DNA of 62,326 nt, the filler included, from Sphacelaria rigidula (Eukaryota): NCBI GenBank assembly GCA_964200075.2. It is 9 parts of 9 records of this genome, joined end to end, with 100 filler letters (N's around TTAATTAATTAA, not from the genome) between each part and the next. Parts side by side here need not be neighbours in the genome. Positions count along the whole stretch, not along the records: positions 55,492 to 62,326 come from CAXNAA020017840.1; 8 more parts are not named here. One strand, given 5' to 3'. The notes beneath the pieces were generated by a model that was not told where the DNA came from, ran no database searches, and saw nothing but the letters and a program-made list of their open reading frames with translations. This document shows positions 6,838 through 61,174 of this stretch, piece by piece. A program made the translations under genes and the position numbers. How positions within the stretch are numbered: the stretch's first letter is position 1; each line of letters starts with the position of its first letter.

Positions 6838-6937
6838 NNNNNNNNNNNNNNNNNNNNNNNNNNNNNNNNNNNNNNNNNNNNTTAATTAATTAANNNNNNN
6901 NNNNNNNNNNNNNNNNNNNNNNNNNNNNNNNNNNNNN
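6838..6937. other. Artificial contig linker (N44-TTAATTAATTAA-N44). Same linker at 13775-13874, 20712-20811, 27648-27747, 34584-34683, 41520-41619, 48456-48555, 55392-55491
   Basis: Identical 100-nt block with an all-frame stop core. It recurs every 6936-6937 nt and separates contigs of 6837-6835 nt in decreasing size order. Confidence 0.98.
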
Positions 6938-13774: not shown

Positions 13775-14273
13775 NNNNNNNNNNNNNNNNNNNNNNNNNN
13801 NNNNNNNNNNNNNNNNNNTTAATTAATTAANNNNNNNNNNNNNNNNNNNNNNNNNNNNNNNNNNNNNNNNNNNNGGCCTGATCAGTTTGCAGCAAACAAG
13901 ACCAACTCAAGGCGTGTTAACGTCACGAGGAGTTGGAGAAGTAGAGCCGAGGAGGTTCTGAGGCAGTGCTAGGGTGGGCTGTGGTATCGCTCGTGCGAGA
14001 GGTGCGGGGGGTTGACCAGCAGCTGGCGAGCCCGTGCACGTTCCGGAAAAGCGGCGAAATTACTGCCTGGTTGAGCCAGCGAGAGTTGCTTGTTCCACGC
14101 TTGGCCAGGTACGGCCAAGAAGGGGAGTCTAAGGACTTCAAACCCGTGGTGAGACCTGCGTGAGGAAGAGGCGCTGTGGCCATTATCGTTGTAAGGTGGT
14201 ACAGCGCGTCTCGGTGTAAGGAGAGAGTTGTTGTTCCTGTGCGTGGGAAGCGACTTCGTTTTTCAAAAAGGCG

Positions 14274-16092
14274 GTGAGGAGTACTGTACTGCTGACCGAA
14301 ATGGATGAGGCGCAGGAATGTGTCATCGTCGATGGTCGCGTTGTTCCTGTACTGGCGCTGGAGATGCCGTACTACGGCCGCACGTTTTCGAGCGAGAAAT
14401 CGGCCAAGTTTTTACGCAAATACGAGCGATATTTGCGAGATGTAGATCAGGTGAACGCGCGGTGGACAAACCTCTTTGAGGTGGCAGCAGTTTCTGAGCT
14501 CATGCCGAAACATATTGCGAAATGTCTATGTGACAAGTTCTTGAAGCATGATTATGATGTTGAGAACCAGCACTTGCTTTTCGCGTTGCGCAAGCATGCG
14601 CCATCCGGTGGGGCTGCTTGCCCTGTGACAGCCCAGGAACATGCGTCTGCCCGAGGGAACAGGCACGACAGTGCACCCGCCGAACGTGCAGTGGGTGCTG
14701 CGCGTTTGAAACAACGATACAGGGCAGCTGCTTGCACTGTGACAGCCCAGAAACATGTGTCTGCCCGAGGGAACAGGCACGACAGTGCACCCGCCGAACA
14801 TGCAGTAGGTGCTGCGTGTTTGAAACACCGATACAGGGCAGCTGCTTGCACTGTGAAAGCCGAGAAGTATGTGTCTGTCCGAGGGGATAGGCGCGATAGT
14901 GCACCCGCTGAACGTGCAGTCGTAGGGCACGTCTCAAATCACGATACAGGGCAGCTGTTTCGACTGTGCAGAGCGTGAAGGAGACGCAGCACGTGTCTGT
15001 CAAAAGGGGTAGGCATGAGAGCGCGTTCGCCGACAGTACCACGGTAAGCATTGGTTTGGATGCTGCTGGTATTGCTGCTGGAGAGGACGAATATGTCACA
15101 CAGGTCGAGCAGACTGAAGGTAGCTCAGCTGCCGCTATTGCCGTTCAGGAGTGCGCTGAGCAGGAGGTGATGGCTGAAGCGGGAATATTTGATCCACTCG
15201 CTGCTGCCGCTGCTGCCGCTGCTGTTGGAAGCGCGAAGCCAATTTGCTCCGATGAGCTAGCGCTGAGCGGCAAAGATCCAGGTTGCTTGTGGACGCCGGA
15301 CCAGAGCGTGATTGGGGTACACCTTGCATGCTCACCGCTGCAAGGGGGTGTTATCTTCGTGATGAGAGTGAGCAAAGCAAGCTTGGGGCTTGCGATGCTC
15401 AGGGTGAATCTATCTGCGCCAATGACATAGCGGGAGATCGTTCAGATTATTCGCAGGGGTGTCTGCTTGAAGGACAGGTGGATGCCGGGTTGGTGGAATT
15501 GCCGCCGGAGCAGCGCGTAGCTGTGGACACGCCTTGCATGATCGAAACAACAGGGGCGTGTGACCCGCGTGAAGTGGGTACGAAGAGCGAGCTGCAAGCT
15601 CGGGATGCTGTTAATGATCACAATTCTGACGGCGACGACAAGTGTCGCGTGGTGTTGCGGTGGTCGTCCGCATTGCTGTTTACATGGACAGCTTTGGCGT
15701 ATTTGGCGGCGATGGCGGAGGTGTCTCCACTGTTTCGCCACGGGGTGTTTGAGGAGGATAGTGTGCCATCAGGAGGTGTTGCTGCTCCGGACTGTGTGGC
15801 TATTTCCGTTTCACCTCTTATTTCCTCTGTAAAAGCGACTGAAGAACGAGCGTTCGTGAATGCGCAAGTATCTGTGGGGGCAGATGATCTGTCGCATTGG
15901 TTTGGCGGTGCGAATATACCTTTTAGAGGCGTGTTGAGCTACACCATGGAGGTGCCAGGTGTAGCTAGACTGAAGGTGCAAGGAGGGAGTGTCCGAGAGG
16001 AAAGGATGCTCTACGCTGTGCACGGGGTTGTGGTTCGAGTGCTGCTGTTTCTCTGGAGCGGACTGGAGGAATACGAAGAAGGCATTACCTGA
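14274..16092 (+). pseudogene. Long frameshifted ORF with a gag-like N-terminus and internal 38-aa repeats, probably LTR-element derived
   Basis: Three overlapping + ORFs (14274-14978, 14966-15430, 15283-16092). The repeat phase shows a 1-nt frameshift near 14925. The N-terminal AKFLRKYERYLRDV..VSELMP is gag-like (inference). Confidence 0.4.
14613..15035 (+). repeat. 114-bp coding tandem repeat, 3 full units plus 1 degenerate
   Basis: Units start gctgcttgc(a/c)ctgtga at about 14613, 14727 and 14841. Translation AACTVTAQKHVSARGNRHDSAPAEHAVGAACLKHRYRA. Confidence 0.9.
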
Positions 16093-18227: not shown

Positions 18228-20650
18228 GTGACAGAAGTCTACAGGCGTCAGCAGGGGTCCCGTTCTGGGTCCGGCTCAGCCGCAGAAGCTGCTGCTCCGC
18301 AACGGGCGGTACAGGTGAGACCGACCACTCTAGTGTCGGGCTCGGTGCCGGCGCCGCCGGCAGCAGAGCAAGGCGAGACGCCTGCTGCTGAGCCGGCCGG
18401 ATTTCAGCTGAAATTTGGATCCGCTGCTGTGTCAGCCGGAGTACCACTGAAATCTGGTTCTGCGGACGGGGCTTCTTACCCGCCGGCGGGGCCGGTGACT
18501 CCAGCGGGGGCGTCTGTACCTGCGCCGCACGCGCAGCCGTGGCGCCAAGTGGGGATCACGACCAATCAATCGGCGGAGCAGGTGCCGGTCGAGTATCAAG
18601 AAAAATATATTCCTGCAGAGTTATATCTCCCAAATCAAGGGGCGCGGGGAGCCATATCGATCAACGCTGTGTTAGATTCAGGCGCCCATTTCACGAGCGT
18701 GTCGGTGCTGGTTGTGGAGATGCTGGAGCGTCTACTCCCTGGTGAGCAAATCCGCATTTCGTTCTAGCTCATGGCGCGGTAGGCCATCACCGCATCGGAG
18801 CAACGTATAAATGTCACGGAGCGTACGATTCCCCTACAGTTGGCTTTCAGGACTACCTGGGTGCCAGCGAAATTACCCCCGATATCGTTTGCGATCATGC
18901 TGGGAACGGATGGCGTCGTTCTGTTGGGCTTACCCACGCTTCAGGGACTCGGAGTCGATCCGTATGATCGGCTGTTAGAGTCCCTAAAAACACAAATGCC
19001 GTCGCCCGGTTCGAGTGTCGAGACGCCTGCTTTTTTGGTCAGTCGCAGAGTGAGCTTGTCGGTTGATGCTCTCCAGGAGGCGGGGGGGCAGGTGTCCGAG
19101 GAGCGTGATGAGGCGATGGAACGCTTGGTGGAGCGTGGCCCCGAGATATTTATTGAGCCGGCAGAAGAGGAGTCCGCGCGAATGGCTGCGCTGGAGGAAA
19201 GCGTGACGGATGCTGTGGCAAATGACTTCAACGTCTCAAAAGCGGAGCGCTTGCGTGGCATATTGTATCACCACGTGAACGCGTTTCGTCGTGCGCTGAG
19301 GGGTTATCCCCCTGCGCGCGTGGAACCCATGAGGGTTATACTGAAGCCAGGGGCAGCCGCGGTGAAGGCAAAACCGAGGAGGTATGATCCGGTAAAGTCT
19401 AGTTGGTTAGCTTCTTGTATGGGAGCTCTTGTGGCGTTTGGGTTGGTGTTAAGGAATTTAGAGGCGGTGTGGTCCAGTGCGGCGATGGCGGTGCCGAAGA
19501 AGGACTATTTCCGTCTTGTCAGCGATTACGGAGCCGTCAATGACCAGGTGGAGAAGTCGCCGGGTGTCATGCCCAATCAGGAATCCGATATGATAGATCT
19601 GTTGAGCGCGCGATGTTCCAGTAACTTGGACCTCCTACAGGGGTACTGGCAGATGTCGTTGGCCGAAGAGGCGTAGGAGATATTCACCATCACAACTCCG
19701 TTTGGCATGTTTACCCCGCAACGAGTACCGCAAGGCGTCTTGAATGCGCCTTCCTATTTTCAAGGTGTCATGGTAGACCATTTAGATGGCTTGAAATGCA
19801 AGATTTGGGTGGATGATGTCTTTTTCTTCGCGGATACGGAAGACGAACTGCTGGATACGCTTGATGCAATCTTGGCTTGCTCAGAGAGTGTTGGTCTGTT
19901 TGCAGCTGCCCACACGTGTACCTTTTTTTCTATAGTGAACTTGTGTGGTGTGGGAAAATATATTCACACGGCCGCGTCTCGCATGACCCGGTCCGCTTGC
20001 AAGGTTTGTTTGACGTGCGGCGTCCAGAAACAGCAGCAGAACTAATGCACTTCCTGCACGCAATGAACTGGTTGCGTACCTCGTGCCACGTATGACCGAA
20101 GTAGTGGCGCCCTTGCACGTTTTCCTAAGAACTCATGGTGGGGGCTGCAAGGCACACGAAGCGGGTGGCCAAAAACACGTTATTCGCCTGCATCGTGGAC
20201 GGAGGACAGGCTGCAGGCATGGGCGGAAGCGAAGGATCTGGTGGCTCATGCCGTGACGCTGTTCCATCCCCGCCCCGGTTGCCAGGTGCTGGTGTTTCCG
20301 AATGCATCCGAGTGTCATTGCAGTAGTTTTGTAACGCAGGTGCCTGATGCAGAAATGCAAAAACGGTTGCCGGTTGAAGAGATGACGGATGAACCGCTGG
20401 CTTTTCTTGGTGGTACTTTCAAGGGTTCACAGATGCGTTGGGCAACCATTGACAAGGAAGGTTTTGCTATCGTGAGCACTTTTTCGTCGTTTCGAGCATC
20501 TTTTGTGGAATGGCGTGCACATTTTCACGGATCACGAAAATCTAGCGAATATTTTTAACTCGGAGGCATGCATGACGTCTGTGTCGGAGGCGTTGGCAAA
20601 GAAATTGGAGGGTTGGAAAGGAGTATTAGGCCAGTATCGGTAAACAATTT
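18228..20650 (+). mobile_element. Degenerate Ty3/gypsy LTR retrotransposon pol (protease, RT, RNase H); integrase not seen before the contig end
   Basis: Protease NAVLDSGA; RT FRLVSDY..VN, LDLLQGYWQM, RVPQGVLNAPSYFQ, IWVDDV; RNase H PLAFLGGTFKGSQMRWATIDKEGFAIV. Several stops and frameshifts. Confidence 0.95.
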
Positions 20651-21129
20651 AGCAGCAAATTGTGCGAATTGAGGTTTAACTCTGAATTGAGGCTCAAGTG
20701 GGCAACCCGACNNNNNNNNNNNNNNNNNNNNNNNNNNNNNNNNNNNNNNNNNNNNTTAATTAATTAANNNNNNNNNNNNNNNNNNNNNNNNNNNNNNNNN
20801 NNNNNNNNNNNGGTTGTTCGGCCCAAAGCCTACTGGCTATCTTGCATTTGGATGACAGCCTACAACGAGTTGCTTCATTTTCTGGTATCGCCACTTCCAG
20901 AGACAGCCACGGCGTACACACTGCCTCACGGGTGTTTCACCATATCGTGCGTTGTGGAGTAAAATCAATCAAACGGCAATTTTTGTTTCAGGGCTTCCCT
21001 TGGAATTTGGCGACACAATCGCCCCGGCGATCTAGTTGTTCGAATGTGACCATTCGCGTGGGATTTTTCTTCGACGTACCTGATTTCCACCGTCGGAAGC
21101 GTGAGCACGTGAGTGAAAAAAAAGAAAAA

Positions 21130-27198: not shown

Positions 27199-28529
27199 AA
27201 AAGCATAACTTTATGAGAAAATGGAACAAGGTTTTGAGGTTATCTGGGAACACTTGACAGAAGAATGAAGAGAGAGAAAGAAAAACTCTTCATCGTTGCC
27301 TGTGGGTAGAGACAAGAGTTTCAACGGTGTTTCAGAACGTCCGAACAACCGGTCCGTCCGTAATGCCCAGGTAAAAACCCCGTGAGTGCAAAAAAAGATA
27401 CACTACAGAACAGTATACCCTTGAACTATTCCATACCCTGGACAATATACGCTCAATAGTTGCGATTGACGAGAAGTGTACTGCATAAAGTATAGGCCTA
27501 TTGCAGTATGTTTGTTGTCTATTGCATCTATTGACCATATACTTCCTCTGTCCCATAAGTTATGTCCGTTATGTTTATACGAGCAATTAAAGGAGTCTGA
27601 TTTGATTTTCGATTCTTTTATTGCATTCGTTGGCTTTTTTTGTGCAANNNNNNNNNNNNNNNNNNNNNNNNNNNNNNNNNNNNNNNNNNNNTTAATTAAT
27701 TAANNNNNNNNNNNNNNNNNNNNNNNNNNNNNNNNNNNNNNNNNNNNTTGCTGCTTTCAACGGCGATCTGACTCGAAATTACGAGCAACAAATGCCCCAA
27801 AATACCCCCACCTCTATCGTAGGATGGCTCGAGTGCATCAGTCAAGATGCGGCAACGCGAGCTTTTCTATTGATGGGGAGGGGGGTACTCATTTTTGTTG
27901 TTTGCCTTAGTCGTTTGACCGTTGACCGCGTATCCCTTTCGACGGAGCACCGTTTCTACTCCTAATAGAGACACCTCCGACATTTGGGCGCTCATTACGC
28001 GTACGTTTCTTCCATTTATCACACAGAAACGTTTCACATATCTTTCATCCCCGTTCTATTGCGTCGTCTGTGGCCACCATCTATCTCCCAGTATAGCCGC
28101 GCATCGTTTTCTCCCTACTGTCTAATAATGCATCAAACGAGTTCATGCCACCTTCGTTCGCGTCCCGCATCTCCTCCTCTACAGTAGTCAACATCAGAAG
28201 TATGCAGTTCGTAACTTATTAGTTTCTCCAGGTTTCTCAAGGATTTTCTGAATTTGTTACGCTTTCCACCGCTCATCACAGTCGCTGTTGGATGTCGAAA
28301 AATGGGCATCAGGAGATATTTTTATCATCTTGATGACAAATATTCGAAGAAAAAATATCGGCGATCAATATTGAGTAACTTACGGGCTTGGCCGATCTTC
28401 GGGGGTCCTGCAAAAGTGCAACCCCAGGTGGTAGCTTTTGGGTATTTTCGGTGGATCGACTCGATCCCGATCATATAAGTTGAGACTCAAAAAGGATTTT
28501 TTTTTTTTAATTTCACCTTTTCACTGCGC

Positions 28530-33130: not shown

Positions 33131-34872
33131 CCCACTTAGCCCCTGCCGCTCTTGTGACGACGAAAGGGGTGGTGTATTGGGTATGTGGTAATAACATGAT
33201 GTTAATCTCTCCATCGATTGGCGATCGCCGGACGAAGACACACAAAAGGCGTGGGCCAGGAGCTTTCTCTCCGGTATTGTTCCTCCGGCGGCATCATCGT
33301 CATCGGTAAGCGTGTACATCGCATTAACTGGGTACACCTACCCACACCTGCTTAGCTTTTAACAAAAGCGAACCACCCTGTAAATTGCTTTTCAAACTGG
33401 GTGGGCAGAATTTTCACAATCGCAAAGGGGGTTTGAACCTCATTTCAATGGTATACCTCATTTTCGGGGAGACTCTCACTATGGTTTTCCACGTTTTGAA
33501 ACATCTGTCGCCAAGACGTTAACGTATATCCGCATGGGTAAAATCAACTGACGAAGCTCATCTTGGTAAATGAGAAGGAAGTCTGTCCCGGTTCGGTGGT
33601 GCCGTGGTAGCAGCCTATAGCACCTCTTTTCGTCTTGAAAATGTAAAGCAGACAGATACGCCAGGTGCATAAAAGGTGCTGTGTAAAAAATAGTCGTTGT
33701 TCGACACTGGTCGCTTTGTGGTGTTTGGTTCACCCTCATGAACATATTTTGCGCTATCATACTGTACATGGGCACAGGTGTACCTTGGGGGATATCCTTT
33801 GCGTTGGAAGGGTTAAAGGGACAGATGGTTTTCGCTAAATATCTGTCTTTTTCTTTCCATGATACTGCGTTTTGTCGTGGAACCGACCTTAGTAAAAGTT
33901 GCACGTGCACAATTTTCATCAATTTGTCCAGGGCAGTACTGACAACAAACGGGGGATCCTAAGGAGTGGGTACGAAAATTGCGCAAAATGGTACCCCTTG
34001 AAAGCACCGAGGAGACTCGAACCCCCCAATGGTTGGAGAACCAAGCCCAGAAGATGTAGTATCCATTTTTAAAATGTGATGCGCGTCGTTTGTCTCCGGA
34101 CTAAAGCCCAACACGTTCCAATCTGGATTTTTTTTCCCCCTAGCTCAAGTTAAAGCATGCCGTTCGTGGAATTTCTGGACACCCAACTGCTCCTTCCGGA
34201 CCATGTGTTTACATTCCATGCGCTTCTCTTCCTTTGTGATTGTTGGGGGACTGTCGAGTTTGATGAAGGTTTGAGAATTGTTTCCGAAATAACTTGCCGG
34301 CGAGTTGCGGGAGCCACAAACAGTTACTTGGAACCTTTAGGGCTATTGAGTGTTTGGCATATTTACTTGTTTTACGTCAGCGGAGGGCATGTACCATTTC
34401 GCACAATTTCCGAGCCCCATCTTCTTCTCTTCGTTTCCAGAAAAAAAAAATCGTCCCCATGTTCCATCATCTCCCCTTTATGGATAAAATCGCTTGGTGA
34501 GCCCTTACAATCACAGGGCTCTGGCGCACGGTGTGCTGGGGAGGCAGGGGGCGGGGGGGGGGGGGGGGGGGGGTGGTTTTGTTNNNNNNNNNNNNNNNNN
34601 NNNNNNNNNNNNNNNNNNNNNNNNNNNTTAATTAATTAANNNNNNNNNNNNNNNNNNNNNNNNNNNNNNNNNNNNNNNNNNNNCTTTATTCCGTGGTATC
34701 GCCACTTCCAGAGACAGCCATGGCTTTTACACTGCCTCACGGGTGTCTAACCGTAAATGTTCGAGGAGGGGGGGGGGCGTTACTCATTTGTTGCTTGCCT
34801 TATTCGTGTGACCATTGACCACGTATCCCTTTCGAGACGGAGCACCGCTCTCGAGGGGGGGGGGGGTTGGTG

Positions 34873-40950: not shown

Positions 40951-42184
40951 TTGCTGCCCGCCTGCCTGATTTATTTTCGTTTGCAATCTACTCGTTTGCT
41001 CCCTGTTTCTTCATAAGTTATCTTTCTCAGGCCTGTTTTATCGACAATTTCCGTTATTTCTCTTAGGTGTGTCTACCTTGTAATCATGGCTGGATTTGTA
41101 GCCGGACTTAACGTCCACTCCCCTTCCTGCCCTGCGTTAGGCGCCATTGATTCCTCTAACCCTGCAGCTACGACTATACTGGTATATTTTATACTACAGA
41201 ACCTTCTGTACGTTAAAGTCAGCTACAATGGACGTTCGCACCGGCAGGCAAACGCAGAAAGTCGACTCCACCAACTGACAGTAAACGATCAATTATGCTA
41301 AAAAGAAGAAGACTGGTGGTGTATCGATCGACCGTCCTTTCGAAACGCTCTTTGATTGATTGACTAAATGATTGATGATCGCACCTTAACCGATCCCCAG
41401 GAATCCAGCCGTGGCCATACAAATGGTAAACGCAATGGAGATGAAAACATAATGAACACACTCACTGCTCATCGAAAACAAATAGGAGGGGGGTGTACTC
41501 ATGATCATGCATGCCATAGNNNNNNNNNNNNNNNNNNNNNNNNNNNNNNNNNNNNNNNNNNNNTTAATTAATTAANNNNNNNNNNNNNNNNNNNNNNNNN
41601 NNNNNNNNNNNNNNNNNNNTGGTTCTGGAGGTTAGTGTTAGGTGGTGGGTGGGGTGTGGGTGGTGCGGGGTGGTGGGGGGGGGTGATGAGGTGATGAGAC
41701 CAGGATCACGACCTCGCTGAGGCTCGTTTGTGGAAGTAATTACTGAGCAGCTTAGGGCCAGGCACAACGATTTCGTCACAGAGGAATGACAGCGGCCACC
41801 CTCAACACTACTGCCCACACTCTTTTCCCGTGTTCCTCATGTGGGGTACACGACGACGCTGGAGAAACTACTGGAGCGCATCTGCAAGCCTTGTCTAGTC
41901 TCTCTAGCCTTGCTATCAGACGGTACGGGTTGGCAGCCAACCCACAGTATCCACAGGAGCAGTAGATGACGGTAGTACCTGTTAGATGTGATCGATCCAA
42001 TGTCACGTCAGGCGGCCAGCGTATTTCCTGCAGGATTGAACGAAAATCTCGTCCACACGAGTTGCTACATCGGCCGCAATGAGTGTTCCTACAGCAATAG
42101 CTTGTCACCTTTCCGCCGACGTAGTTCCTTATTTGAGTACGTCTGGTGTTTATCCTCTCGGTTTTTCGTTGATCCTTTTCGCAG

Positions 42185-47476: not shown

Positions 47477-47634
47477 CTGTAATGCGTGAGAGGACCGCGT
47501 GCTTAGGGGACCGCATCGTAGTTCGAATGCCCCTGATCCTAACCCCAACACTAACCCTAACCCTAACCCTAACCATAGGGATGTTGAAGATCCGATGCAG
47601 TCCTCTAAGCACGCAGTCCTGTCACGCATTACAG
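47477..47634. mobile_element. MITE, CTGTAATGCGTGA-TIR family with an internal (CCCTAA)n tract
   Basis: About 40-bp TIRs; interior ctaaccccaacactaaccctaaccctaaccctaacc. Confidence 0.88.
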
Positions 47635-49760
47635 ACTCGATCCTTTAAAGTGAAAACTATCAAGGAGGTACTGCACCGGGCGAAAGAATGATCGAACCTT
47701 TGGGACTACGGACTTGTCGCGAGGAAGGTCAGGGGGTGAAATTATGGCAAGAAAAAAACATGAGAAGTCTCCACCGCGGCATGTTTCCAGCATCACTATC
47801 GAGTCTTTGACTGTGGAATAGGTGTCTAGCTTACACATTTCCCCGGGCCTATTATGGCGCTACAGTGATCTTTTTGCATCATAACATACGTATATGTGCA
47901 CGAGGGTGACATGTTACAGTCTTCCACATTACAGGAGAATGGATGGGTGTATGATGAAACCGATTGTATCAAGTTGTCCCGGCTTGCTGTGCCTGCATCT
48001 CAGCGGCACCTTTTTTGGCAGGCGCCTTGCCTTCGCATTCGTGGCGGTGTGCTGCCGACTTGCCACATAAAAGTTGTCAACGGCGGAAACAGAGTACCGG
48101 GTTATGCTACGATATAGGGGGGAGGGGGATTTGGGGCCGTTTTCTTCCACGAAGTTCTACTTGAAATCGTCGTTGATAGCAACAATGGTTGTTCGCACGC
48201 GCTTGCTTCCGATAAATAGCGCTCGTTCACATTACTCGACACCGCTTTTACCCAAATGCAAGCGCAACGCGAGTGTCTTAGGCCATCTGAAACATCTATG
48301 AGACCATTTTTTCGTGGAATCACCCCCCCCCCCTCCCTATCGTGGCCTGGTTAGACACCCATGAGGCAGTGTAAAAGCCATGGCTGCCTCTGGAAGTTGC
48401 GATACCACAGAATAAAGCAACTCATCCTTGGCTGCCATCCAAATACAAGATAACCNNNNNNNNNNNNNNNNNNNNNNNNNNNNNNNNNNNNNNNNNNNNT
48501 TAATTAATTAANNNNNNNNNNNNNNNNNNNNNNNNNNNNNNNNNNNNNNNNNNNNTAGTATGGGCGAACCCCCCCCCCCCCCCCCCCCTCAGAAGGTCGA
48601 AAATAAAAAAATGGGAGTGTGGGTCCAGGATTTGTGTTTTGTGCCCTCTTGGCGAATGTTTCCATTTTGTTTGTCTTTCTGGTTGGTTATCATGTGACCA
48701 CGTCTGGATCCCTCAAGGATCAATTAAAGAGCGAAAATTAATCAATCAGTCAATCAATCAGTCAGTCAGTCAATCAAGGCCCTTGGGAAATGCCGCCACG
48801 TGACCCCTTGGACAGCAGGAAACGAAATTGTTACTGTACTTTAGCTTGATTCTGTGTACATGTACTGAAAATACGCAATGCGGATTTTTGCTACTGTTCT
48901 GTCGAACCCATGCATTGGTCCGTGTCATCTACAGAATATCTTTTTGATATTCGTTTCATCGACGCACCGATGTATCAGTATCGTCACGCAAGGGCACAAC
49001 CCGTGCCGGAACCGCGTTCCCGAGCTGGTGAGGGACCCCACCGGAGGCGGAAAAAAAAAGTTTGGGTATCATCTCTCCTTGAAATCAGCCCCCGTGTTGA
49101 CCTCCCCAACGGTAGCTTCCTTATGCGCACGAAATTGAATTCGGCCGACAAAAATACGCCGAGAATGAAAAAAGACAAGAGATGCATCTCCGGTTCAGTG
49201 CCGCTCGCTGAGGGATGCAACCCGTTTATATCTTTTTGCGGTAGAAACAAGATGCTGCTGGCGGTGTTGTTACTGCTTCTGGTTACCCGTTGGGGGTTGC
49301 GTTGCTGCAGCAAGCCACTACAGGCCGCCCTCACAGCTAGATGGTGGCGATGGCATGGAACAACACGATGGCCGCACTAATATGCGAACGAGGGCTTCGT
49401 GAAGGGCTCCGACCACTTGAATGTCGGCAAATGCATTTATATGTGTACGAGTAGTCATACTACAGAGGTGCGCTGGCGAGGAAACAGTATGCTGGCTGCT
49501 GATTCTCCCTGGGGGAAAGTGCTTTCGCATTGTTAGTATGCGAATGTCGCTGCGTATCCCAACTTCACACACCGTACAGCGGACATTGGTGTTCAAAGGG
49601 CTGAAAGAACAAGAGGTATACCTCCAAGAATGTAGCAGAACAGGCAACAGGAGTGGTGTTAGCTTTTACTTTTTTGCTGCCGATCATCTTGTGGATTTCT
49701 TTTGCCGTTCATCTTCCGAGACAGAAAACGGGATTTAACTTTTATTCTCTGCGAACCCAG

Positions 49761-53880: not shown

Positions 53881-56624
53881 GCGTGCCACTCTGCCCTTCC
53901 GAATGTGGGGGGGATGGCAACCCGGGTGGTCGACAAGAGCGGACAGTGCCCATCGTTGAGTGCATGGTGATGCACATTCCAAAACACAGACTCGAAAATG
54001 ACGACAGTAACCGAGAGATGCAGAGGCGAGGAGGGGCACCGAAGAATATACAGCTACTACCGTTTGTTCCATGCTGGGCCAGCCATAATTAGCGTAAATA
54101 GCCAAGAATTTAAATGACGGCAAGTGTCCGCAGCGCACAAACTGCCCTCTTCAGAACAGTACTCGTACTATCTTAGTCCAAGTTTCAACTTCGCACTTTC
54201 GATGAACCACTTGACGGCGAGCAAAGGTTATCTGTTGAGTCAGCTTCAATTTCACTTGAAAAAAGTATGCACCATCCAGATGGACTACCCTCACGGCCAA
54301 GGGTCTAACAGCGACAATTCAGGTTCTTGGGTTTCCACGGCTCATCATGCTTCGTGTTTGATCCCGAACTTCTAGAATCGAGAGGCAGGAGCACCCGACA
54401 CACATACCGCGAAAAAAAAAAGAGACCAATATTGAACGAGTTATGGGATCCCCCGTCATTGGGGATCCTACGAGTGTACAGCCCAGAGTTCTTGCTCTAT
54501 GATATTATTTGTCGGCCGTACCAATCCGGACCATTACAATAGAAAATTAGTTCCTTCAGTTTTTTCAATTCTCGATATTCCTTACGCTACCGCCGCAAAA
54601 ACGTGTTCTTGTCATATACAGTCAACAACACCCCCCTCAATAAACGGAGTTTTACTCCGTATTGATGCGACAGATTAAAAAATTGGGCAATGTGTCCCGA
54701 GCACGACCTGCTTCTTTTCCAACGCCTACCGCCCCTGAAACTTTCGAGTAAAGGTGACGAATCGTCTGCGAAAAAAACGGGTACCACTGTAACGTGTTCA
54801 AAATCAACGGCTAGCCAAACAAAGCACAACAGTACAGCACAATAACTTTAAACATCGCGAAAAATAGTAGCCTTTGACAGCACGGAGCCTTTGACAACAA
54901 CTGTAGATCGACGTGACATGCTGTCAGAGCCCGTTCCACGCATAGCCGAGTTGGCGGTCCATAAGCAAACCATCTCAGAATTATTGCCACGCCGAGAAGT
55001 CTTCATCCATGATCAGCTGAGGAGGATGAACCATGGACACGTGCATCAAAAAAGCAAAGCGCGGGGGACGGGGGGAGAGGGGGCTTTTTCATTCCAAGGT
55101 AGAAGCTACCACCCATATTTTATTTCTCACGAAACACGGAGAGGTTCAATGGTTCAGTGCACAATGCACATGGCGACATTTCTAGACGCACACGGTGTTT
55201 TCCTCCACAAACACTACCTTGACTGCACCAACTACTACCCACCCGCAAGAGACTGTAATTTGGACCACAGCCCTGGTTCGTTTCACGACTTTCGTACAGT
55301 ACCTACGCCTTACCCTGTGAAGGGAGGAGGAGAAGGGGGGGTGTACTCATGATCATGCATGCCATGGTCATCAGACCATTGGCCTCGCATCNNNNNNNNN
55401 NNNNNNNNNNNNNNNNNNNNNNNNNNNNNNNNNNNTTAATTAATTAANNNNNNNNNNNNNNNNNNNNNNNNNNNNNNNNNNNNNNNNNNNNACAAATTTG
55501 GACAATCTTTGAGAAACTAGGAAATTACGGATTCTGCATACTTCTGACGCTGACTACTGTATTCATCTGAAAACTCTGCGTCAGTGAGTGCATCGTAAGT
55601 CGATATCGTTAGAACGACACTTACCATAAATACATCACCGGCTGCCAGACTGTCAAAACTAAGGATCCGCTAGCATTGCCACTGTCTATATGGGGATGTT
55701 GCCCCCTTGTCGGGTACGCTTTCGTGCATGATACTAGATGTAGATCATGCTTGTAAATGGGAACCAACTGCTGGGCGTTCTCACTCAAGACTTCGATTTG
55801 AAGATGATACTAGGTAGGGTGCATACGCTGTGTGTCCAGGTGCCCCTTGGAGCAGGATGCGTTTGGTTTCTGTTTGACAAAGTTATCCCGGAAAAAACGA
55901 AATCAATAGGGGTTCTAGAGGTGAAAAATCCAGTGAAACAAATGTCGCGAAAAACCGGTTAGTCGATTTTTTACTCGCAGCAGAAATCAAGTTCACCTTG
56001 TGGAATTGGGATGTACTTCCCACTCACGCCGGAAGTCGACTGTAAATGCCTGTCCCCCCCATCCACGATACCACGGCTACACTCTTGGCTGAGCCATCTG
56101 ACACCTTCGAGTCACGTGTGCACTCTGTCCAGTGTGGGGGGTTGGCAAGTGCACGCGTCATACGCTTTCTCACAATAATGTGATACCCTCGACAAGCTGG
56201 TTGTCCCATTGGCAACACAGGAGTTGTTCCCAGCGACAGTAGAGGCCAGGGTGCTGCTACAGCACTCACAGCGAAGCAGTACCAGATGAGTGAACATTCT
56301 GCAGCACGCTCCACGCGTGCCAATCAATACGGCAGGCATTACAGTGTTGACACCCGCTACAACAAAAAAAACACTTGTGCGAACTGCTTCTTCCACGAAG
56401 CAATTCGTTAAAGCCACCACCAGAACTCCGGCGCAGCATCCGCATATCATGATCACCCAAGAACAGCTCTACCCTTTCGCAGCGACACGCGCGAAAACCG
56501 GGGCTGCGGCGGCGCATTTGGATATATTTCACCGTCAAACTCGTCAGGCAAAACTGGCGTTAAGCTACAGATCGGCGTGCGGCGAGCATGTCATAATCAC
56601 TCCAACTCGCGTTCGTGTTGACAC

Positions 56625-58466
56625 TTACGCAAGGGGGGGAAACGGAGCCGAAAATGCCAGCTCCATCTTCATACCTTCCTCTTTACCATGAAACACAACT
56701 GAAGAAGCATCTACAGCAGCGTCTTCTGCCCGAAGGAGTTCACGAGCCATAGACCTCGTCCTGCAAATCCGCTTCTTCACTCTTTCATCGCATATATCGC
56801 TGGAGTTACTGCCAATCCTGCTGCTCCCACCTTCATCAGAGTAGGTGGCGACGCCACCCCTCCTTCGCAAGCTCTGCCTGGGACGCTGGGAGGGAGAAGA
56901 CTCTTCCAATTTCACCTTCGTGTGCGGTCCCGTCCAAAGAGATCCTCCTTCGATACCCTCGGCGGGCTGCGGTGGCGCGGTATCAACACGTTCGGAACTT
57001 CCGAATAAAATGGGGCCGAACCCGACATCATCCGTACCATCCTTCTGACTAGTGGAATATTTGGGTCGTCCATCTTGGGTGGAAATTTGATCGAAAATGT
57101 CTTGATGTTGCCCTCGCCCGGTTGCTTGAGATACGGCATGTTGGCATACGTGAATCTGTTCGGCGCCATCAACGCGGCACACACACCGACCCGAACAGCT
57201 TTCGCTGCCGCATCTCTTGCTCACTATATTGCCCATCCCCACCCTCGCTTGACCGGTACAGAAGTGCGCCTTCTGATTCCCCGCTACACCATACGATGGT
57301 TTCTTCGAGCAGCCCTCGTTGCCGCATCTCTTGCTCACTACGTTAACCATCCCTACCCTCGCGTGACTGGCACAGAACTCCGCCTTCCGACTTCCCGCTA
57401 CACCGTACGATGATTTCTTGTTGCAGCCCTTGTTGCCGCACTTCTTGCTCACCACGTCAACCATCCCTGCCCTCGCGTGACCGGCACAGAACTCCGCCTT
57501 CCGACTTCCCGCGACACCGTACGATGGTTGTTTGGAGCAACCCTCGTTGCCGCATCTCTTGCTCACCACGTCAACCATCCCTGCCCTGGCGTGACTGGCA
57601 CAGAACTCCGCCTTCCGACTTCCCGCTACACCGTACGATGGTTTCTTCGAGCAGCCCTCGTTGCCGCATCTCTTGCTCACCACGTCAACCATCCTTGCCC
57701 TGGCGTGACCGGCACAGAACTCCGCTTTTCGACTACCCGCTACACCGTACGATGGTTTCTTGGAGCAGCCCTCGTTGCCGCACTTCTTCCTTGCTACATA
57801 GACCATCCCTACCCTGGCGTGACTGCCACAGAACTCCGCCTTCCGGCTTCCCGCTACACCGTACGATGGTTGTTTGGGGCAGCCCTCGTTGCCGCACATC
57901 TTCCTCGCTACATAGACCATCCCTGCCCTGGCGTGACCGGCACAGAATCCAGCCAACCGGGTTCCCGCTACACCGTACGATGGTATTTTGGAGCAGCCCT
58001 CGTTACCGCACCTCTTGCTCACTACATTGACCATCTTCACCCTGGCGTGACTCGCACAGAACTCCGCTCTCCGGCTGTCCGCTGCACCGTACGATGGTCT
58101 CTTCGAGCAGCCCTCGTTGCCGCACTTCTTGCTCTTGACGTTGACCATCCCTGCCCTGGCGTGATCGGCACAGACCTCCACCAACCGGCTTCCCGCTACA
58201 CCGTACGATGGATGTTTGGCACAGCTCTCGTTGCCGCACTTCTTGTTCGTCACATTCACCATCTCCACCCTGGTGTGATCGCCACAGAATTCGGCTTTCC
58301 GACTCCCCGCTGACCCGTACGATGGTTGCTTGGACCAGCCCTTGTTGCCGCACCCCTTACTTACTCCACTGACCTTACCAACCAGGTTCACCGGCACCTC
58401 CAAGATGTTGACGACCGTCGCGCTATCTCGCGAAACTTTCAAGCAGCTCTCCGGGCGCGCTGCCAA
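56625..58466 (-). CDS. EsV-1-7 cysteine-rich repeat protein (10 full + 1 degenerate 38-aa repeats, then a low-complexity C-terminus); true start uncertain
   Basis: 613-codon uninterrupted frame. The unit KKCGNEGCSKxPSYGVAGSRKAEFCAxHARAGMVDVVS (C-x4-C-x16-C-x2-H) is the EsV-1-7 motif of Ectocarpus virus 1 and brown-algal IMM-family proteins. Confidence 0.93.
   Translation of the reverse strand: MAARPESCLKVSRDSATVVNILEVPVNLVGKVSGVSKGCGNKGWSKQPSYGSAGSRKAEFCGDHTRVEMVNVTNKKCGNESCAKHPSYGVAGSRLVEVCADHARAGMVNVKSKKCGNEGCSKRPSYGAADSRRAEFCASHARVKMVNVVSKRCGNEGCSKIPSYGVAGTRLAGFCAGHARAGMVYVARKMCGNEGCPKQPSYGVAGSRKAEFCGSHARVGMVYVARKKCGNEGCSKKPSYGVAGSRKAEFCAGHARARMVDVVSKRCGNEGCSKKPSYGVAGSRKAEFCASHARAGMVDVVSKRCGNEGCSKQPSYGVAGSRKAEFCAGHARAGMVDVVSKKCGNKGCNKKSSYGVAGSRKAEFCASHARVGMVNVVSKRCGNEGCSKKPSYGVAGNQKAHFCTGQARVGMGNIVSKRCGSESCSGRCVCRVDGAEQIHVCQHAVSQATGRGQHQDIFDQISTQDGRPKYSTSQKDGTDDVGFGPILFGSSERVDTAPPQPAEGIEGGSLWTGPHTKVKLEESSPSQRPRQSLRRRGGVATYSDEGGSSRIGSNSSDICDERVKKRICRTRSMARELLRAEDAAVDASSVVFHGKEEGMKMELAFSAPFPPLA
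57138..58358 (-). repeat. 114-bp coding tandem array (EsV-1-7 units)
   Basis: Exact 114-nt period from 58358 to 57218. Confidence 0.97.
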
Positions 58467-61174
58467 GCTAGCATCACCGCCATGACGGCAAAACGAGAGG
58501 CTCTAGCGCACTCAATATCGGCTGTTTCAGGCAGTCAACGGCCGAACGAAGGGGGGAGGCTGTCCCTCCTGCCGCTGCCTGAGAATAATTAACGGATTCA
58601 AAAGCCGAAAAACAGATTCTCAAGTGTTTCCCAAATGCGGCATACAGTACTTCGAGACAAATGCCAAGTACGGCCTGTATACATCTTGCGTGGGCCTTTA
58701 CTTTGTGATAGAACCTTTGCTCTGTCGAACACTCTATTTACAAACGTAGTGCTGCCGATTCTTCTGGTGGAGAGCTTCGCAACACGATAGACATTTCCTC
58801 CACTGGATGCGTTGCTGAATTGCGCAGCAAGAAAGCAACACAAACACGTATCATACACTACGGCCAAAACTCAGGAATGGGTAAATGATTTAGATCGAGA
58901 AAAACACTACAAGCTTTATATTTTTCAGTATCAAAAGTGGGAGAACCTTGGGCCTCCATGAGAAACTCGTAGACCACCTTCTGTTGTCGTCAGTTGTGCC
59001 ATGCAGAAAGCTCGACAAGATACAAATATATGTATCTCACAAATGTCTTTGCCTGAGGAAACTTCCTTCACTGATCTTCATCAATTTTCGCGTATGAAGT
59101 GACATGATTGAGAGGATGTGAACGTCCTCGTCGTAAGTACCATCCTGCATATTTCTGCATTAGTATCTGCTGCGGCTGTAGGTACACGTATTGACACAAC
59201 CGGTCAAGGACTCCGCGTCTCAAAAGGCAGGCCGGTTTCTCCGCGACTGATGGCCATAAACGTTCCGTTTCCGCAACACCAACTGACATGCATGCAACAA
59301 TTGAGTAGGGAAAAGTATCGAACAGGCACGTGAAACTGCACTATAAAAAACAGGGAGTGAACAACCAAAGGTGATTTTTTCATGAACGAGTCAAGAATTC
59401 TACGAGACAATTTCGGAATCATACCTCATTCTCGGTCAAGTTTGACCCATTTTCAAAGCGATAGCTCAGAAACACGACATTCTACAGAGAAGGCAATTGA
59501 AACGGATGGTTCTGATAACAAAATCAGCAAACACTGGCATTTCCGCCTCTTCATGGGAGAAGCCAAAGTCAGTGCCTTGCTGGATGCTGCACCTTCTCAA
59601 CACATTTAGACTCAACGTCACCAGGAGACACGAGATGATTGCATAAACTATACACAGCGAAGTGCAAGATAATAAAATTGCTCAAGCTAACTCGTTGAAG
59701 GAAAAGGGTACGTATCAGTGTCTACCGAACACGGACTGTCCTTCCCGTAGGGAAGTCGCGAAGTCACGGTACGGCTTGAGCGGTCAAGTCCGTGCTTGAA
59801 AACAAAACTTTCGCGGTGGTTGGAAAATATACAAATCTCAGGCCCCGCCTCAACACCGGTACATAACAATCCTGATGAATTCCGGTCGACAGCCCAGAAC
59901 AAGTGCATGGCTACATCATCTATGATAAACAAATACACGATCCTTGACGAGGCCATGATGGGCTGCGCCATTCGCTTGAAGTTCCTTCATAGTATGCCTT
60001 GAGGGTTGATGCTTTGCGAATGAAAATGGCTTCACATGCGCAGAAAGATACACTACATACATCGCCCCCCGTGTTTTTAACGATAAGTCACACAACAACC
60101 TATGCGATCGGGACGTATGTGGTCGTGGTGATCTTGGATCGTTCGGTATGGACTGGAACCAAGGTGCTGGAGGAAAAAGCGCGAGTCAGGAGCACACTAA
60201 AATGAAGTAAGTTCATCACCAGCACTTTGTGCACATTAGCCCCCGAAAACATTGTGCTTTCGGCAAATGAAATGATCAAGACATGACAGCGCCTCCAAAT
60301 TAGACCATCTTAGTGCACAGGACGTGTGAACATTACTTTAGGAGCAAATTACACCCAGCTCCCAACACGAGACCAGGGGTAATGGTTGGGAAGCACTTGA
60401 TTCAGCAGGTCAACAGATTTCGGTTCTTGTGATCTCAGCACTTCGTTCATGATCGCCTTATACATGTCGTGGTATTTGATGTTACATTCCATCACATACT
60501 TTCGTTCGAGTGACTGACTCTGACTGCAATCCTGTCTGATTAGTTGCTCCCACGCCGATGAGATAGTGTTGCACGTCTCGGTTAACAGTGATAACACCGC
60601 TGGCGTGCAATCAGTCCTTCCGCTTCCATGCTGCAAAAGGGTTTCTCCATTGACAGCACCCTTCCAACCTCCCCTCCTCATGCTCCTGACTTGCCCTCGG
60701 ACGGTACAACATGGTGAGTAGGAGCCACGCCCTACACGGGTCGCTGGGGTTTTTGATACATGTCGACACTTTGCATCGTGGTCAGCACCCATTCGGGTCT
60801 TGACGTGTGCTCTAGTTGGGAGTATCGAGGCCGTAACGAACGTTGGGTTCGTGTTGGCATGTGTTGGACACGAGGTTGCCCTCTGAGCAACATATTTCAA
60901 CATGTACTTCCCCCGCCGGCTGTGGATACCGGTATATCGAGTCGGCAGAATGGAAATAGTTATCAGACAACATACGTCGAGCACAAACAATGCAAAGGGT
61001 GTCATTACATAGATTGACTTGTGCCCAGGGCGCTTCCCATTTCAGTATATTTTGGTGTTTGTGACGTTGGTCTTGGCTTGCGGCGATGAAACCGGAGTGG
61101 TCTCGGCTGGGCCCTTGTTAGTAGTGGCTCTGGAATGAAGGTCCGCCGCACGCACTCGGGGTATGGTGATATAA

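Follow-up and report, generated by a model that had tools for sequence, protein, structure and literature searches.

The EsV-1-7 domain defines one of the largest gene families of brown algae, with 2018 proteins in 31 genomes according to the excerpts of the Denoeud et al. preprint used here, which also describe the domain as a possible novel zinc finger. Among the members of the family is IMM (IMMEDIATE UPRIGHT), a regulator of development, and the passages of the literature available to us call the function of the domain unknown or give it as supposed. Zinc binding by the motif is likewise supposed in the excerpts consulted (Denoeud et al. preprint; PMC12477816), and EsV-1-7 proteins have been hypothesized, in the passage cited, to be zinc-finger transcription factors (PMC12629598). 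Within the portion of a 2026 preprint considered here, the Ectocarpus members are reported to carry no other Pfam domain, and an excerpt on Ectocarpus transposons describes a mariner transposase, TcMar-2_Ec32, that gained an N-terminal EsV-1-7 domain (PMC12477816). Here we analyze an EsV-1-7 gene found in a 62,326-nucleotide stretch of the brown alga Sphacelaria rigidula (parts of assembly GCA_964200075.2 joined end to end; "the window" means this whole stretch). Comparison of its tandem units with those of algal and viral relatives revealed a small set of positions that differ from unit to unit within arrays, and many giant-virus-type relatives carry, after the same kind of array, a domain predicted to fold like a nuclease. 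We found neither the position set nor the array-nuclease fusion in the literature searched; UniProt-derived names already call some of the viral fusion proteins "Endonuclease."

RESULTS

The array and the variation among its units

Tandem Repeats Finder reported an array at 57202-58374 with a period of 114 nucleotides (nt), 10.3 copies, 83% matches, 0% indels, and a score of 1404. The coding strand is the minus strand, on which ten 38-residue units, cut at the first Cys, occupy 58352-57213 and are followed by a divergent unit 11 at 57212-57099. Pfam family PF19114 (EsV_1_7_cys) matches the window protein (P0001) in 10 stretches (E=3.3e-133; 433.6 bits against a cut-off of 25), and all four ligands of the pattern C-x4-C-x16-C-x2-H are kept in 8 of the 10 units (units 2 to 9). 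The tandem repetition that marks the EsV-1-7 family is thus present as an indel-free array with a 114-nt period, and 38 residues is the commonest unit spacing in relatives too (851 of 1326 intervals). The array is strongly basic, with 68 Lys and Arg against 23 Asp and Glu residues, a net charge of +45, and an isoelectric point (pI) of 9.8 over 380 residues. A six-frame scan of the window with a profile of the array's own units gave no further EsV-1-7 copy. In database searches, the closest relatives came from Sphacelaria rigidula itself, as unnamed proteins (such as one with 57% identity over 54% of the query and another with 73% over 25%), and none of the database matches to the window protein was identical to it. 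A preliminary description of this DNA had given ten 38-residue units with an exact 114-nt period, an EsV-1-7 assignment, a very basic array, and degenerate ends (C6 to W in unit 1, H26 to Q in unit 10, and a divergent unit 11), and each of these points was borne out.

The same description had drawn attention to position 9, which does read Q,H,R,I,Q,K,K,Q,K,K across units 1 to 10 (codons CAA,CAT,AGA,ATA,CAA,AAA,AAA,CAA,AAA,AAA) and lies between near-invariant neighbors: K8, S11, Y12, and G13 are found in all ten units, and P10 is found in nine, with S once. Position 9 is the entropy peak of the ten units (2.05 bits, 5 residue types), followed by positions 35 (1.57), 25 (1.52), 33 (1.49), and 7, 30, and 38 (1.36 each); the claim of one variable residue therefore held as to which position varies most but not as to its varying alone. 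Nor are the units "near-identical," as they had been called: identity between units is 55 to 95% in protein (mean, 73%) and 72 to 95% in DNA, and the central units, 6 to 9, are the most alike (88 to 95% nucleotide identity). Pooled over the ten units, the proportion of synonymous differences (pS) was 0.33 and that of nonsynonymous differences (pN) was 0.14 (pN/pS=0.43), values that fit coding units that are under purifying selection and have been separate for some time. Position 9 carries the largest nonsynonymous load, with 47.5 nonsynonymous versus 2.5 synonymous differences summed over 45 unit pairs. The synonymous divergence argues against very recent homogenization of the window array, and we saw no sign of recent reshuffling of the kind invoked earlier, in which repeat recombination would rearrange specificity.

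Unit-specific positions across the family

We collected 229 proteins, cut them into units with a profile made from the window units and rebuilt once, and retained those units that were free of gaps and had every one of the four ligands, 1015 in all, from 201 proteins (the window protein left aside). Mean within-array entropy was highest at position 9 (1.78 bits), with positions 35, 11, and 36 next. Among 383 same-protein unit pairs that were at least 75% identical, position 9 differed in 63%, position 36 in 60%, position 35 in 55%, position 11 in 49%, and position 33 in 35%; positions 2, 3, 7, 25, and 29 differed in 20 to 31% of the same pairs. For 140 proteins and 859 units, diversity at position 9 was 0.80 within arrays and 0.85 when any two units were compared; this gives a ratio of 0.94 (bootstrap, 0.92 to 0.97), and none of the 34 variable positions had a higher one. 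The next ratios in that set were those of positions 36 (0.91), 11 (0.90), 33 (0.89), and 35 (0.86), and positions 2, 3, 4, 7, 14, 15, 25, 28, and 29 had ratios of 0.61 to 0.74. These unit-specific positions led in each of three subsets, namely nuclease-fused proteins (72 proteins), named brown-algal proteins (22), and others (64), and they also led in a set picked via the nuclease domain alone (77 proteins, 363 units). The leaders among the named brown-algal proteins were positions 36, 9, 35, and 33; position 11 is mostly S there.

The alphabet used at position 9 is narrow: R (251 units), Q (242), I (85), H (78), and K (57) account for 713 of the 1015 units. Within arrays, position 9 co-varied only weakly with other positions (9-11, z=2.8) and was nearly independent of the linker positions, which co-varied among themselves (33-36, z=9.9; 35-36, z=4.5). 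Degenerate terminal units like those of the window array recur in relatives. The EsV-1-7 unit thus has the conserved scaffold with a few unit-varying positions that characterizes modular readers of the TALE (transcription activator-like effector), PPR (pentatricopeptide repeat), and PUF kind. Position 9, which had been singled out as the candidate recognition site, keeps its place at the head of the within-array ratios, but the candidate site is now a set made up of positions 9, 36, 35, and 33, joined by position 11 in viral relatives.

Fusions of the array to a predicted nuclease-fold domain

The consensus of the aligned relatives pointed to a conserved stretch behind the EsV-1-7 array, and a motif search located this C-terminal domain, of about 150 residues, in 103 of the 229 relatives. 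The giant-virus-type fusion proteins (P0014-P0229 and P0234-P0352) carry an N-terminal array mostly of 5 to 12 units, and 98 sequences of the C-terminal domain share invariant R-P-D and E-x-D-E-x-x-H motifs, one R, and one N. An AlphaFold2 (AF2) model of this domain from P0051 was predicted with a mean local distance difference test score (pLDDT) of 92.8, and the Protein Data Bank (PDB) matches listed for it are nearly all PD-(D/E)xK nucleases, with probabilities up to 1.00: McrC (E=5.1e-3, probability 1.00), archaeal Hjc, Bax1, R2 endonuclease, PspGI, and AF1548. On the strength of this model, the domain is predicted to fold like a PD-(D/E)xK nuclease. Searching BFVD, a database of predicted viral structures, gave 51 matches at E<=0.001, including records named "Endonuclease" from Faunusvirus, Brazilian cedratvirus, and several Pithovirus LCPAC, and a DUF559 protein of Marseillevirus LCMAC201 (E=9.2e-7; template modeling [TM] score on the target, 0.70). 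The BFVD matches also included, for the array part, the viral EsV-1-7 protein itself. The closest Atlas clusters of the C-terminal domain were 100% viral and belonged to Nucleocytoviricota.

Family profiles gave little for this domain. No Pfam model covers it, and nothing matched it at E<=10 except DUF6405 (0.087); when 80 members were compared with Pfam, no nuclease family appeared among the 25 of 39 families listed. NCBIfam returned only far-below-cut-off matches for the fusion proteins, all in the array part, and the PHROGs family phrog_9084 ("homing endonuclease") matched at E=0.0027 in one of five proteins only.

Using the domain alone as a query against longer proteins only, we recovered 1477 proteins at E<=0.001 among 1660 candidates, of which the 120 closest were listed. 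EsV-1-7 units are present in 95 of these 120, mostly as five or six units. The other kind of array, seen in 25 of the 120 (P0237, P0250, P0254, P0260, and 21 others), consists of 6 to 11 copies of an 18-residue module with the pattern C-x-H-x6-C-x2-C, spaced by 18 residues in 208 of 213 intervals. These modules vary mainly at positions 6, 8, and 9 and use an R/Q/I/Y/N/H alphabet, like that of EsV-1-7 position 9. Two kinds of zinc-module array in front of one nuclease-fold domain would be expected if the array were the aiming part of the protein. Four long EukProt models (P0230-P0233) place EsV-1-7 units beside UCH/DUSP/zf-MYND, a DOT1 histone methyltransferase domain, or the reverse transcriptase RVT_1; these may be true fusions, but we gave them little weight because they may equally be merged gene models.

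Because the nuclease fold includes RNA enzymes, a reading in which the array grips RNA stays in play. Its modules would then be knuckle-like, each holding a few nucleotides of single-stranded RNA in the manner of PUF, PPR, CCCH, and RanBP2-type fingers, and this would agree with the very basic charge of the array, with small zinc modules that carry unit-specific residues, and with the presence of cap-snatching enzymes, which are RNA endonucleases, among the fold matches of the viral partners. Most of those matches (McrC, Hjc, Bax1, R2 endonuclease, PspGI) are nevertheless DNA enzymes, the BFVD records carry the names Endonuclease and DUF559, a DNA transposase is the partner in the other known fusion, and the weak SBP match described below is to a DNA-binding domain; we consider it unlikely that the array reads RNA.

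Formally, the array could instead be a protein-binding scaffold comparable to LIM, B-box, or ankyrin domains, with variable positions that track changing partners, possibly viral ones. A family that is common to giant viruses and their algal hosts, and for whose domain the literature passages give no known ligand, would suit such a role, and the insignificant fold neighbors of the units include LIM and PHD domains. However, a net charge of +45 over 380 residues would be unusual for a protein-protein scaffold, and arrays of 5 to 12 units that precede a nuclease and are interchangeable with a second zinc array fit target-site recognition better. The residues R, Q, H, K, and I are, moreover, typical of base contacts, and they are the alphabet of position 9. 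A scaffold role thus seems improbable to us.

Gene structure and integrity

The features of the gene are as follows, all on the minus strand.
56625..58502, stop-to-stop open frame that contains all of the EsV-1-7 gene body seen; upstream in-frame stop TAG at 58505-58503
58481..58483, upstream ATG, read directly, one base out of the array frame; its own frame ends after 14 codons
58239..58352, unit 1, second zinc ligand lost (C6 to W), upstream of the first in-frame ATG; it may be untranslated or may continue an exon that lies farther upstream, outside what was seen
58260..58262, first in-frame ATG, at position 31 of unit 1; codon 69 of P0001
57327..58238, units 2 to 9, eight canonical 38-residue modules of 114 nt each, with the pattern C-x4-C-x16-C-x2-H
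58238, 58124, 58010, 57896, 57782, 57668, 57554, 57440, boundaries of units 2 to 9; the position-9 codon lies 24 nt below each unit start
57213..57326, unit 10, fourth ligand lost (H26 to Q), linker GMGNI in place of GMVNV
57099..57212, unit 11, divergent; C1, C6, and C23 kept, His at 25, KxPSYG core lost
56625..57098, C-terminal tail, no Pfam family
56904..56915, VKLE, first psi-K-x-E motif, residues 518-521
56661..56672, MKME, second psi-K-x-E motif, residues 599-602, near the C terminus

The open frame spans 625 codons. Its first in-frame ATG falls in the linker that closes unit 1, and there is no in-frame ATG between the upstream stop and unit 1, so unit 1 is possibly untranslated: translation may begin at the linker Met, or else the sequence may lack an exon or a base. 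The protein would accordingly have nine or ten tandem modules before the divergent last one. A start at the linker Met (MVNVV or MVDVV) is also seen in three of six Sphacelaria rigidula gene models inspected (P0004, P0018, and P0086). The out-of-frame ATG at 58481-58483 could reflect a frameshift or an assembly error, or it could belong to an unrelated short frame.

The tail of 157 residues after unit 11 gave no match in a Pfam scan, and an Atlas search with tail residues 419-613 gave a best score of 0.75, under the useful range. Tail and unit 11 together have a net charge of -2. The tail aligns weakly with the tails of Sphacelaria relatives, and among 29 named brown-algal relatives, 18 have counterparts of its psi-K-x-E motifs, frequently the pair MKVEL and VKLEL; a run of at least three K or R residues occurs in the tail of 19 of the 29. 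The psi-K-x-E pattern is the SUMO consensus, and the pair in the window protein resembles SUMO-acceptor sites.

These observations bear on whether the locus is a decaying or nonspecific copy, that is, a recent paralogue without a proper start that binds polyanions unselectively or is not expressed at all. Such a copy would account for the missing start, with the closest upstream ATG one base out of frame, for the two lost ligands in units 1 and 10, and for the lack of an identical database protein (the best being the 57% match over 54% of the query), and it would not be surprising in genomes that hold hundreds of family members each, as excerpts of the Denoeud et al. preprint report. The frame is nevertheless open over all 625 codons with no indel across 10.3 copies, and pN/pS among the units is 0.43 rather than about 1. 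The divergent last unit and the tail motifs are common to Sphacelaria relatives, in which a last unit ending in C-R-Q-H recurs, and the gene models of several of these relatives also begin at the linker Met. One relative, P0004, shares the H26-to-Q unit with a GMGN linker, so the seemingly broken unit 10 may be inherited rather than the product of recent decay. On balance, we give decay a small chance of being the right explanation.

Fold and profile likenesses of the module

An AF2 model of units 5 to 8, built with 119 relatives as the alignment, reached a pLDDT of 90.4 and a predicted TM score (pTM) of 0.59. Short strands span positions 12-14 and 31-33 of each modeled unit, position 22 forms a bridge, and residues 24-26 form a helix of three residues. 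The nearest PDB neighbors of this four-unit model in Foldseek, all insignificant (E from 2.4 up), were the nsp13 zinc-binding domain, LIM, and GATA3, and we drew no fold assignment from them because no match reached E<=0.001.

The profile of the SBP (SQUAMOSA promoter binding protein) domain (PF03110) aligned, with its positions 1-34 of 75, with one whole unit (E=0.0023, 18.6 bits; E=0.0048, 17.6 bits). The first SBP zinc site also has the spacing C-x4-C-x16-C-x2-H. Both scores are under the cut-off of 27 bits and the units have only three Cys and one His, so we rejected membership in this domain and treat the likeness as a lead. PF24906 (Zf_WRKY19) matched nine of 80 scanned relatives, with a best E of 5.2e-13, and matched a window unit weakly (E=0.3). 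Several other Pfam matches were discounted. DUF1490 exceeded its cut-off of 28.4 bits (45.6 to 50.3 bits), but 0 stretches passed alone and the score is probably the sum of weak repeat matches, so we judged it a repeat artefact; the matches to Phe_ZIP, CILP_5th, and CoV_NSP13_ZBD were also judged to be repeat driven.

Other features of the window

An open frame on the plus strand, 14220-14978, holds a second tandem repeat with a period of 114 nt (14613-14968; 86% matches over 3.1 copies). This repeat was rejected as an EsV-1-7 relative, since it has no Pfam family and its best match to the unit profile was E=6.1, and the equal period looks coincidental. Retroelement frames lie at 18228-20558, of which the frame at 20067-20558 matches reverse-transcriptase RNase H (PF17919, E=1.6e-9), whereas nothing in Pfam matched those at 18228-19676. 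At 47538-47574, internal to the window, CCTAAC, which is the telomere unit CCCTAA rotated, is repeated six times. Paired blocks of 44 N's recur about every 6.9 kb (6838-6937, 13775-13874, 20712-20811, 27648-27747, 34584-34683, 41520-41619, 48456-48555, and 55392-55491), and there are two 10-N runs as well; these look like masking or scaffolding and not like biology. Simple repeats are also present, and the window has the overall look of a eukaryotic chromosome. A Pfam scan of 12 open frames in the window gave no viral hallmark.

DISCUSSION

Nucleic acid is the likeliest ligand of the EsV-1-7 array, because the same array precedes a nuclease-fold domain in many giant-virus-type proteins and because an EsV-1-7 domain has also joined a mariner transposase. 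Across these proteins, the array looks like a swappable part that targets nucleic acid. The nucleic-acid ligand put forward in the preliminary description is in this way strengthened. The window protein lacks a nuclease domain and combines a +45 array with a tail that bears two psi-K-x-E motifs, and it is therefore probably a DNA-binding regulator. More specifically, we hypothesize, with about even confidence for and against, that it is a nuclear, sequence-selective DNA-binding regulator whose zinc modules supply backbone contacts and whose positions 9, 33, 35, and 36 supply preference. Each module would hold one zinc ion, and the conserved K and R residues at positions 8, 18, 19, 37, and 38 would hold the nucleic-acid backbone. 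The preference of a module would be set by its unit-specific side chains, at position 9 just after the zinc knuckle and at positions 33, 35, and 36 in the linker, with position 11 adding to it in viral relatives. Strung together, the modules would read an extended site, as C2H2 arrays do, and the tail would carry regulatory motifs; both DNA as the ligand and the nuclear location are what we infer.

Several observations weigh against this proposal. The window array offers a sample of only ten units. The protein sets consist of related proteins selected for their similarity to the query, and the bootstrap was over proteins and not over a tree. Family-wide, the entropy of position 9 ranks only 7th (3.40 bits versus 3.70 at position 7), behind positions 7, 2, 14, 25, 3, and 28; an earlier, smaller sample (180 units) had placed position 9 first. 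A high ratio of within-array to total diversity can also come from a fast, weakly constrained site. Position 9, which is fast but narrow in its alphabet, is unlike a purely unconstrained site, which should be both the fastest and the broadest. Structural comparisons of the array gave no significant neighbor: Foldseek of the four-unit model against the PDB returned 22 matches at E<=10 and 0 at E<=0.001, and PDB sequence searches with the array and two alignments returned chance matches only (E=0.27, 1.2, and 2.3). The PDB matches of the nuclease-type domain are likewise all at E>0.001 (best, 5.1e-3), and they include the RNA-cutting cap-snatching endonucleases of bunyaviruses. By motif search, that domain is absent from P0001 and from all the named brown-algal relatives (0 of 29), so the argument from fusion reaches the window protein by array homology only. 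Finally, no in-frame start precedes unit 1 of the gene and a ligand is missing from two of its units, which makes partial decay possible. As a whole, the earlier interpretation of this array is partly supported.

A broader view, to which we are drawn only tentatively and give somewhat less than even credence, is that EsV-1-7 repeats are a further natural class of modular, re-programmable DNA-recognition repeats beside C2H2 fingers and TALEs, in which viral arrays aim nucleases and brown-algal arrays have expanded into regulators. Each module would read a short DNA step via positions 9 and 11 after the knuckle and positions 33, 35, and 36 in the linker. In giant viruses, such arrays would aim a large family of PD-(D/E)xK-fold nucleases, which would then be natural zinc-module nucleases, with the 18-residue zinc array sometimes swapped in. 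Brown algae, for their part, would have retained the array but no nuclease, and this array would have given rise to hundreds of regulators that include IMM and the window gene. If true, this would account for the growth of a virus-shared domain into a large family of regulators, and sequence recognition would gain a new protein scaffold. The list of unit-specific positions, which holds in algal and viral arrays alike, makes the question of function testable; the frequent fusion to a nuclease fold points to DNA as the ligand to assay, and natural target sites might lie around the viral nuclease genes.

Comparison with known systems

The window protein is closest to the EsV-1-7 family itself (PF19114, which includes Ectocarpus IMM and a gene of Ectocarpus siliculosus virus 1), with which it shares the ligand spacing and the tandem 38-residue units, and its best relatives are brown-algal. 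IMM is reported, in the excerpts of the Denoeud et al. preprint, to have five units and an N-terminal domain of its own, whereas the window protein has ten units. It also differs in a tail with two psi-K-x-E motifs that is common to Sphacelaria paralogues. The giant-virus "Endonuclease" proteins have the same array and the same unit-specific positions 9, 11, 35, and 36, but they carry a PD-(D/E)xK-fold (DUF559-like) domain after it, whereas the window protein has no nuclease; at positions 13 and 27, N and K predominate in the viral units, and the window array has G and A.

Among zinc-binding domains outside the family, SBP differs in having a second zinc site and no tandem repetition, whereas EsV-1-7 units have only three Cys and one His, and PF24906 (Zf_WRKY19) is a 24-position profile that covers the knuckle region only. 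C2H2 arrays appear to be the closest working analogy, since they likewise consist of tandem zinc modules with a conserved scaffold, few variable positions, and basic linkers. The C2H2 ligand pattern is C-x2-4-C-x12-H-x3-5-H, and the C2H2 unit has about 28 residues in a beta-beta-alpha fold; the EsV-1-7 unit has 38 residues, the pattern C-x4-C-x16-C-x2-H, and, in the model, short strands with a three-residue helix. Given that pattern, the lack of any C2H2 family in our Pfam scans, and the presence of the three-residue helix only, we rejected C2H2 membership.

TALE arrays offer a second analogy, in that they have a similar unit length, long arrays, and defined differing positions, and the artificial nuclease fusions made with them would find a natural parallel in the viral fusions. 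TALE units, however, are helical and metal free and differ almost only at two adjacent residues, whereas EsV-1-7 units differ at at least four separate positions; membership in this class was rejected as well, the window units being 55 to 95% identical with several separate variable positions. The window locus is thus an ordinary member of a known family, one that, by analogy, may work like C2H2 or TALE arrays.

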